A DNA stretch of 64,000 nt from Escherichia coli (lineage in GTDB: Bacteria; Pseudomonadota; Gammaproteobacteria; Enterobacterales; Enterobacteriaceae). A program made the position numbers. This document shows positions 37,101-38,231 of the stretch, one piece after another; the first letter of the stretch is position 1, and each line of letters opens with the position of its first letter. The stretch is from NCBI RefSeq assembly GCF_030013205.1, contig NZ_CP122648.1, one strand, 5' to 3'.

Positions 37101-38231
37101 GGCGAAGTGATTTTCCTCGGCATCCAGCCGGATATCGTCGGCTTTTACTACCCGATGACCCAGCCGATTAAAGACGCCGTAGAAACCGTTTATCAACGGC
37201 TGGAAGGCTGGGAAGGGAACGGCGGATTCGCGCAGTTAGCGGTGGAAGAAGAGTAGTTCGTAGACAAACATGTTCACGTTTTGGAATTTGGACGTGCTAT
37301 TGTGACGTGTAGACGGGTGTTTACATATTGTGAACACCCGTGTGATCAACTACTATAGAAAAATAAATCCGAAGGAATGGTAGTCCAGGTATAGTCATTC
37401 AGGCGCTAATAAGGAAGTTAAAATGCACATCATTTCGAAAGCGCCATTTGAAGAGTGTGCGCGCAAATATCCTAACGACGCTCTGGCTCTACACTCATTG
37501 TATCGGGTTATTAAGGAAACGGATTTTTCTACGCCAGAAGAAATGCGAACGGCGTTTCCCAACCTCGACAATTTTAAATATCGCAATAAATGGTACGTTC
37601 TGGATGTCGGCGGGAACAATCTTAGGGTTATTGCCTACATAAACTTTGTTAATAAGCGGTTCTTTGTGAAGCACATAACTAATCACGCCGAGTATGACAA
37701 ACTGACACGTTACTACAGAGAGAACAAAGAATGACTGCTAATGCTGCACGCGCTGTTAAAGCAACAAGAGAACTGGTCAATGCAGTCCCCTTTCTGGGAG
37801 GCAGTGACTCAGAAGATGATTATCGTGAAGCACTGGAACTGGTCGAATATTTGATTGAAGAAGATGATACTAATCCACTTATCGACTTTCTGGCGAGCCG
37901 CATTGCAGAATATGAAAACAATAACGAAAAGTTTGCAGAGTTCGACAAAGCCGTTGCAGCAATGCCGGTTGGCGTGGCGTTACTTCGTACGCTGATTGAT
38001 CAACATAATTTGACCTATGCGGATTTGAAGAACGAAATCGGCTCTAAATCTCTGGTCAGTCAGATTTTGTCTGGGCAACGATCCCTGACGATATCCCACA
38101 TTAAGGCACTTTCAGCCCGATTTGGCGTTAAGCCGGAATGGTTTCTTTGATTTTGACTGATGCCAAACCCAAGATTGCCCGATGCGCAACGCTTATCGGG
38201 CTTTCCTGGTTCGTGCGACGGTAGTTACTTA

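Follow-up and report, generated by a model that had tools for sequence, protein, structure and literature searches.

Genes and features between hycI and ascB

Between hycI, which ends at position 37256, and ascB, whose stop codon (minus strand) lies at 38229, the window (the whole 64,000-nucleotide stretch of Escherichia coli DNA that we analysed) carries a toxin gene followed on the same strand by an antitoxin gene. The two reading frames overlap at ATGA, and through this overlap the antitoxin gene is translationally coupled to the toxin gene. An earlier note on this DNA had described both reading frames, their overlap and their placement between hycI and ascB, and every coordinate of that reading proved right; so did its expectation that the pair would be missing from K-12, since the hycI-ascB gap of K-12 MG1655 is 158 bp long and free of genes. 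The features of the locus are given in Table 1. Two terminator-like sites reported by a scan were discounted, as both lie inside the antitoxin gene.

Table 1. Features of the hycI-ascB interval, in positions of the window
Feature	Position	Strand	Description
Inverted repeat	37313-37325 / 37329-37341		13-nt arms, 12/13 complementary, 3-nt loop
Predicted operator O1, GTTTACA-tat-TGTGAAC	37319..37335		17 bp, overlaps -35
Sigma-70 promoter, inferred	37328..37356	+	-35 TTGTGA (37328-37333), 17-nt spacer, -10 TACTAT (37351-37356)
Shine-Dalgarno AAGGAAG, toxin gene	37411..37417	+	read from sequence
Toxin gene, HigB family (PF09907), SehA-like	37423..37734	+	103 aa; RefSeq WP_000547555.1
Antitoxin/repressor gene, HigA-type	37731..38150	+	139 aa; RefSeq WP_000126294.1
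REP-like inverted repeat	38169-38183 / 38195-38209		core GCCCGAT...ATCGGGC

The toxin matches the Pfam family HigB_toxin (PF09907; E 4.6e-23, residues 22-93) and aligns without gaps over residues 1-100 with the K-12 HigB structure 5IFG_A (E 7e-22), and residues 9-138 of the antitoxin align with K-12 HigA (5IFG_B; E 2.5e-35). K-12 HigB and HigA are the best solved-structure matches of the pair, which bears out the HigB/HigA type first assigned to it. A search of both proteins against NCBIfam gave no meaningful match, so the naming rests on Pfam, PDB and the PGAP annotation. In strain CFSAN018748, which has an identical locus, RefSeq calls WP_000547555.1 a 'type II toxin-antitoxin system HigB family toxin' and the antitoxin WP_000126294.1 a 'helix-turn-helix domain-containing protein'. 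The pair is thus an ordinary, already annotated member of the known HigB/HigA toxin-antitoxin family; a full-text literature search on the locus and its RefSeq proteins found no publication. With 39% (toxin) and 47% (antitoxin) identity to K-12 HigB/HigA it is, as had been proposed, a diverged paralogue of K-12 higBA and not a copy. The corresponding values for Salmonella SehA/SehB are 57% and 44.6%; SehA is the nearest toxin of the characterised systems, and the antitoxin is about equally far from HigA and SehB.

The antitoxin consists of an N-terminal HigA domain, of the toxin-binding and dimerisation type, followed by a C-terminal Xre helix-turn-helix (HTH_3, residues 85-138). Its HTH segments vary by lineage (SKSLVSQILSGQRS, SKSMVSRVLSGKRK and SKSNVSNILNGRRA), which would fit differing operator specificities. 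In the toxin, the positions conserved to at least 90% in a family alignment of 53 sequences (the 50%-identity representatives of 481 matches at E <= 1e-3) are D49, G64, N65, R68, H88 and Y91, all of which are putatively catalytic and all of which the window toxin has, so that the check on conserved residues named in the earlier note revealed no loss. In SehA, alanine substitution at Y53, D61, H88, Y91, K93, T95, Y97 or Y98 abolishes toxicity (PMC12817084). The window toxin is identical at eight of these eight residues, at the same positions, whereas K-12 HigB has N61, F93, V97 and H98 instead.

Upstream of the toxin gene lies an inverted repeat that as RNA (37313-37341) folds at -21.5 kcal/mol (z = -4.4). 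We rejected it as a terminator of the hyc operon, because no T-run follows the hairpin. The earlier note had suggested that the whole repeat could be the operator; this held for the inner 7-bp half-sites, which are conserved in relatives, but not for the outer 6 bp of each arm (ACGG.../...CCGT), which are specific to the window allele. The core GTTTACATATTGTGAAC is the sole match to GTTYACANNNTGTRAAC in the 64-kb window, with 0.04 expected by chance. The upstream regions of the window and O26:H11 are otherwise diverged, and have in common only a stretch of 19 bp (GTGTTTACATATTGTGAAC) and the Shine-Dalgarno block ATAAGGAAGTTAAAA of the toxin gene, which the O26 allele has kept. Of 21 related loci examined from other genera, 20, three Salmonella prophage copies among them, have the palindrome GTT(T/C)ACA-N3-TGT(A/G)AAC at the toxin promoter, so that it is conserved across a dozen genera. 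O1 is therefore the predicted binding site of an antitoxin dimer. Additional half-site-like words at 37272-37288 (four mismatches) were set aside, as they are not conserved in the WL297 allele.

In the two-operator relatives that were measured, O1 lies at -73..-57 from the ATG and contains the -35 hexamer TTGTAA, after which come a 17-nt spacer and a TATAGT-type -10; most related loci have a second operator, O2, at -35..-19. The window promoter was placed by its position in these relatives and by the architecture of the K-12 higBA promoter. A consensus promoter scan did not report it, and its hexamers match 8 of 12 consensus positions. In the window, O1 is at -104..-88 from the toxin ATG, and the leader of the E. 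coli alleles is about 30 nt longer than the short leader of the relatives. O2 is absent upstream of the window toxin and degenerate in the O26 allele. E. coli has thus lost this second operator, which is present in most of the relatives. In one further allele (L033:1467-1808) the toxin start codon is replaced (AAA), the O1 spacer is changed (GTTTACATGTTGTGAAC), and PGAP calls a 113-aa reading frame from an upstream start. When we sought the origin of the window-type upstream region (166 bp) among plasmids, the sole match was a mislabelled E. coli chromosome: NZ_CP134663.1, a 4.9-Mb record in the plasmid collection, is evidently chromosomal and carries a window-type locus at 98.8-100% identity.

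On the far side of the module, the sequence GCCCGATGCGCAACGCTTATCGGGC forms a REP-like hairpin. REP elements are imperfect intergenic palindromes with the consensus GCC(G/T)GATGCG...CTTATC(C/A)GGC, and in K-12 and O26 the REP-like sequence adjoins a canonical REP. The hairpin that the earlier note placed as a flank of the module is real and extends over 38169-38209. However, this element also occurs in the gaps of K-12 and O157, which lack the module, and it therefore belongs to the shared hycI-ascB backbone and is no part of the module. For the higBA and asc transcripts, which are convergent, it may form the end or act as a stabiliser. The canonical second REP (GTAGGCCGGATAAGGCGTTCACGCCGCATCCGGCA), which in K-12 (L001:3916-3960) and O26 adjoins the ascB stop codon, is missing from the window (38210-38228) and from O157:H7.

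Proposed action of the pair

The locus is best explained as a chromosomal, autoregulated type II HigB(PF09907)/HigA operon of a distinct lineage, probably with a SehA-like toxin action, a reading that we hold to be likely. Both genes would be transcribed from the promoter whose -35 lies inside the 17-bp palindrome O1. As the homologous K-12 HigBA complex and SehAB suggest, the 139-aa antitoxin would bind O1 as a dimer through its C-terminal HTH domains and repress the operon, and its N-terminal domain would clamp and neutralise the 103-aa toxin. On depletion of the antitoxin, free toxin would shut down protein synthesis, and growth arrest would follow. The toxin is expected to act like SehA, for which the present literature describes binding to RNase III and a block in the maturation of rRNA, because it has the SehA-specific residues K93, Y97 and Y98 of the C-terminal helix together with D61. 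Several points count against this explanation: the RNase III mechanism of SehA is the work of one group and the window toxin is 57% identical to SehA; O2 is absent; the promoter hexamers are weak (8/12); and genomes with the antitoxin only outnumber those with the toxin.

The same architecture could also serve a toxin that is a ribosome-dependent mRNA endonuclease like K-12 HigB, entering the ribosomal A site and cutting translated mRNA, and we regard this as a realistic possibility somewhat short of probable. K-12 HigB, a proven toxin of the same Pfam family, cleaves translated mRNA only (PMC2814082), and PF09907 is listed under ribosome-dependent mRNA degradation (PMC11980606). The family-wide conservation of R68, H88 and Y91 is more readily explained by a shared catalytic site than by a protein-protein interface specific to one lineage, and for this reason mRNA cleavage stays almost as likely as the SehA route. 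However, SehA, and not K-12 HigB, is the nearest characterised relative (57% versus 39%), and the C-terminal helix residues of the window toxin are of the SehA type, unlike those of K-12 HigB. SehA is reported to lack endoribonuclease activity, to generate no cleavage ends in mRNA and to require RNase III for its toxicity (PMC12817084). On account of the C-terminal helix of the window toxin we lean slightly towards the SehA route.

Two linked possibilities go further, namely that the toxin is an inhibitor of RNase III and not itself an RNase, and that the antitoxin is selected where the toxin is gone, as an immunity factor or as a regulator; together they are less likely than not, and we advance them tentatively. 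If the first is true, a toxin directed at RNase III would be present in about every fifth E. coli strain and on many plasmids and prophages of Enterobacterales. If the second is true, the lone antitoxin would provide immunity (anti-addiction) against plasmid and prophage homologues, or would be a regulator with other targets.

Rather unlikely, though compatible with a toxin-antitoxin nature, is the reading of the pair as primarily an abortive-infection module against phage. It draws on PD-lambda-2, a system that protects against lambda-vir and in which, as in the window, a HigB-like gene comes first and a HigA-like HTH opens the second gene (Vassallo et al. 2022; PMC9519451). The PADLOC profile PD-Lambda-2_A matches the toxin (1.2e-15), the N-terminal part of PD-Lambda-2_B matches the antitoxin (2.4e-14), and close relatives of the pair occur in a Cronobacter phage and, next to the immunity region, in prophages of Salmonella. 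However, PD-lambda-2 is a three-gene system: its second gene, the toxic part, has an ImmA/IrrE-type peptidase at the C-terminus, and the third, P4 antitoxin-like, is required for defence. The window has neither. Its antitoxin (139 aa) covers positions 9-115 of the 402-position PD-Lambda-2_B profile, and a search for a third reading frame after the antitoxin found none in the window, ascB being the next gene. Furthermore, in PD-lambda-2 it is B that is toxic and A that rescues (PMC9519451), and the window locus lies between hyc and asc and not in a defence island. We therefore do not class the window pair as PD-lambda-2, the peptidase domain and the third gene being absent.

Distribution and history of the module in E. 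coli

Distribution was counted over 5426 complete E. coli genomes, the toxin by the 5' part of its gene. The antitoxin gene is present in 2508 genomes and the toxin gene in 1091 (about one in five), so that 1417 genomes (2508 minus 1091; about a quarter) have the antitoxin without the toxin gene; the upstream region of the window type is found in 343. In all 2508 genomes the module is single-copy, chromosomal and located at the hycI-ascB site.

The contents of the gap vary. It is empty in K-12 and O157, and in the window it holds only higB and higA. In O26:H11 a hypothetical gene is present in addition to higB and higA, and in the antitoxin-only alleles (L004, L005, L031 and L034) the hypothetical gene, full or truncated, is accompanied by higA only. 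In O26:H11 this neighbouring gene encodes 247 aa with a signal-peptide-like N-terminus and lies between hycI and higB (L003:587-1330). It is complete in 1462 of the 5426 genomes, and searches for it in PADLOC and PHROGs gave no match. The 158-bp gap of K-12 maps to the start of the 247-aa gene, its last ~25 nt and the sequence downstream of higA, and the start and end of the gene are joined at a GGGATGT repeat, as the scar of a deletion. The K-12 gap (L001:3916-4073) also shows an 18-nt remnant of this gene (ATGTTCTTGATGGGGTGA), apparently left by deletion between GGGATGT repeats.

Among the antitoxin-only alleles we found two distinct deletion junctions, at which the promoter and higB are gone except for the last ~30-40 nt, and higA with its Shine-Dalgarno sequence is spared; toxin, promoter and operator have all disappeared from these alleles. 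Intact and antitoxin-only alleles encode one and the same antitoxin protein, with no nonsynonymous against 5-10 synonymous differences among them. The toxin alleles, in contrast, differ by 5.5 nonsynonymous and 6.5 synonymous changes, giving a pN/pS of ~0.2 compared with ~0 for the antitoxin. The excess of antitoxin-only genomes over genomes with the toxin, together with the pN/pS of the toxin, would fit a module in the process of being lost. The antitoxin-only copy L031 is frameshifted by a 25-bp deletion. Downstream of its antitoxin remnant, the same strain (GPEC102; L031:1987-3379) has a small hypothetical gene and hydN in place of ascB and ascF, so that the whole hyc-asc junction is a hot spot of rearrangement.

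These data bear on a further reading, that the module is a decaying remnant whose toxin is attenuated or dispensable and whose antitoxin is selected as an anti-addiction factor or as a regulator of other genes. In its favour, 1417 genomes have the antitoxin alone (2508 with the antitoxin against 1091 with the toxin); at least two independent deletions took promoter and toxin and spared the antitoxin reading frame and its Shine-Dalgarno sequence; and O2 has been lost. The antitoxin protein is unchanged in the antitoxin-only alleles despite 5-10 synonymous changes, although this synonymous divergence may partly predate the toxin deletions, which leaves selection after toxin loss unproven. Prophages and 531 plasmid records carry toxin homologues of 60-80% identity, against which an antitoxin could protect; the antitoxin-only alleles, however, have lost O1, with no alternative target site known, and some of their antitoxin genes are frameshifted. 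Since the window allele keeps both reading frames, the Shine-Dalgarno sequence, O1 and every critical toxin residue, we consider it improbable that the module as found in the window is such a remnant, and prefer the autoregulated operon. Whatever its cause, the hycI-ascB gap provides a natural decay series (intact module, antitoxin only, scar) for the loss of a toxin and the retention of its antitoxin.

The earlier note had called the pair inserted, a polarity that is probably wrong in view of the deletion scar of the 247-aa gene in K-12 and of the synonymous divergence of the module. Between the window and O26, pS is 0.10 in higA and higB and 0.18 in hycI; the module has thus diverged to the same order as its flanking gene and is an old resident, not a recent arrival. 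In the O26 allele higBA is flanked by a short repeat, CTGA / GACTGA, which fits either a deletion by microhomology or an old insertion. The reading of a recent horizontal gain by insertion, with the hycI-ascB gap empty beforehand, could appeal to this repeat, to the mobility of the family, which has copies on plasmids and prophages, and to the toxin scan of species-representative genomes, a peptide-pattern scan that needs exact 8-mers (the sehAB locus was not returned either) and that yielded no Escherichia locus, but it is very unlikely, because the K-12 gap holds a deletion scar at the GGGATGT repeat, pS in the module and pS in hycI are of similar magnitude for the same strain pair, and the module occupies one and the same chromosomal site, in single copy, in 2508 genomes.

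Relation to known HigBA systems

Relative to other E. coli alleles, the window toxin is 95% identical and the antitoxin up to 100%. Outside the species, a copy at a Leclercia chromosomal locus (L007) shows 80% (toxin) and 78% (antitoxin), and the toxin is 73-78% identical to those on the chromosomes of Klebsiella aerogenes, Kosakonia, Cronobacter, Mangrovibacter, Pantoea, Mixta, Kluyvera and Citrobacter. Salmonella prophage copies show 69% (toxin) and 71% (antitoxin) identity. A tblastn search located the toxin lineage in the Cronobacter phage JK004 and on 1016 plasmid records, of which 531, mostly from Klebsiella, show 60-80% identity. Taken with the identities to SehAB and K-12 HigBA given above, these values indicate that the pair belongs to a third enterobacterial HigBA lineage, apart from K-12 higBA and sehAB. 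In itself it adds one chromosomal HigBA module, already named in RefSeq, to the accessory genome of E. coli, and little new biology; the remaining interest lies in the molecular target of the toxin and in the widespread retention of the antitoxin without it.

The unstudied copies of this lineage include plasmid copies in Enterobacter, Leclercia, Klebsiella and Citrobacter, chromosomal copies in Leclercia, Kosakonia, Cronobacter and Mangrovibacter, and those in Salmonella prophages. Their toxins are 69-80% and their antitoxins 71-78% identical to those of the window (the antitoxin in two copies measured), and they have the same half-site, GTT(T/C)ACA. They mostly have two operators (O1 at -73, O2 at -35), whereas the E. 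coli alleles have O1 alone, at -104; and many of them are carried by mobile elements, in contrast to the E. coli copy with its single, fixed chromosomal site. The 69%/71% copies of Salmonella enterica (L026-L028) lie in lambdoid prophages and adjoin Cro/CI-like genes, which suggests a role in phage-phage competition or in stabilising the lysogen.

K-12 HigB/HigA (YgjN/YgjM; PDB 5IFG and 6KML) shares with the window pair the family PF09907, the toxin-first order, a 4-nt overlap, similar protein lengths (104/138 aa compared with 103/139 aa) and the layout of the antitoxin. The plan of the promoter, with a palindrome over the -35, is also the same. However, the K-12 half-site is GTTGCCA and that of the window lineage GTTYACA, K-12 higBA has two palindromes and the window one, and the K-12 genes are located between fadH and rlmG, not between hycI and ascB. 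The K-12-type higBA (L029:2729-3456) is itself variable in E. coli: some of its sequence is matched in 4377 of the 5426 genomes, and 80% or more of it in only 2825.

SehA/SehB (STM4031/STM4030.S) has the same gene order as the window pair, and SehA is the closest toxin that has been studied experimentally. The SehB antitoxin (142 aa, compared with 139 aa in the window) is autorepressing, with palindromes over the promoter (PMC7160566, PMC12817084), and is reported to bind two of them, over the -35 and the -10 (PMC7160566); the half-site is GTTTTCA. The first description of sehAB (2013, PLoS Pathogens; PMC3868539) is marked retracted, yet it continues to be cited for operator binding in papers that came after it. 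A Salmonella protein with 69% identity and the published residue set (P0030) was considered as SehA and rejected, being a prophage-borne copy with a 139-aa antitoxin. The true sehAB was identified near fdoI-fdhE on a contig of Salmonella Infantis, where the annotation refers to STM4031/STM4030. Unlike the window pair, sehAB lies between yiiD and STM4032 homologues; on account of this different locus, the 44.6% identity of SehB and the half-site GTTTTCA, we reject the window pair as its orthologue. As the nearest relative of SehA in E. coli, the window pair nevertheless offers a simple test, in E. coli, of whether the recently claimed inhibition of RNase III holds outside Salmonella. The three enterobacterial HigBA lineages thus share one promoter plan and differ in their half-sites (GTTGCCA in K-12 higBA, GTTTTCA in sehAB and GTTYACA in the lineage of the window), as would be expected of insulated paralogues.
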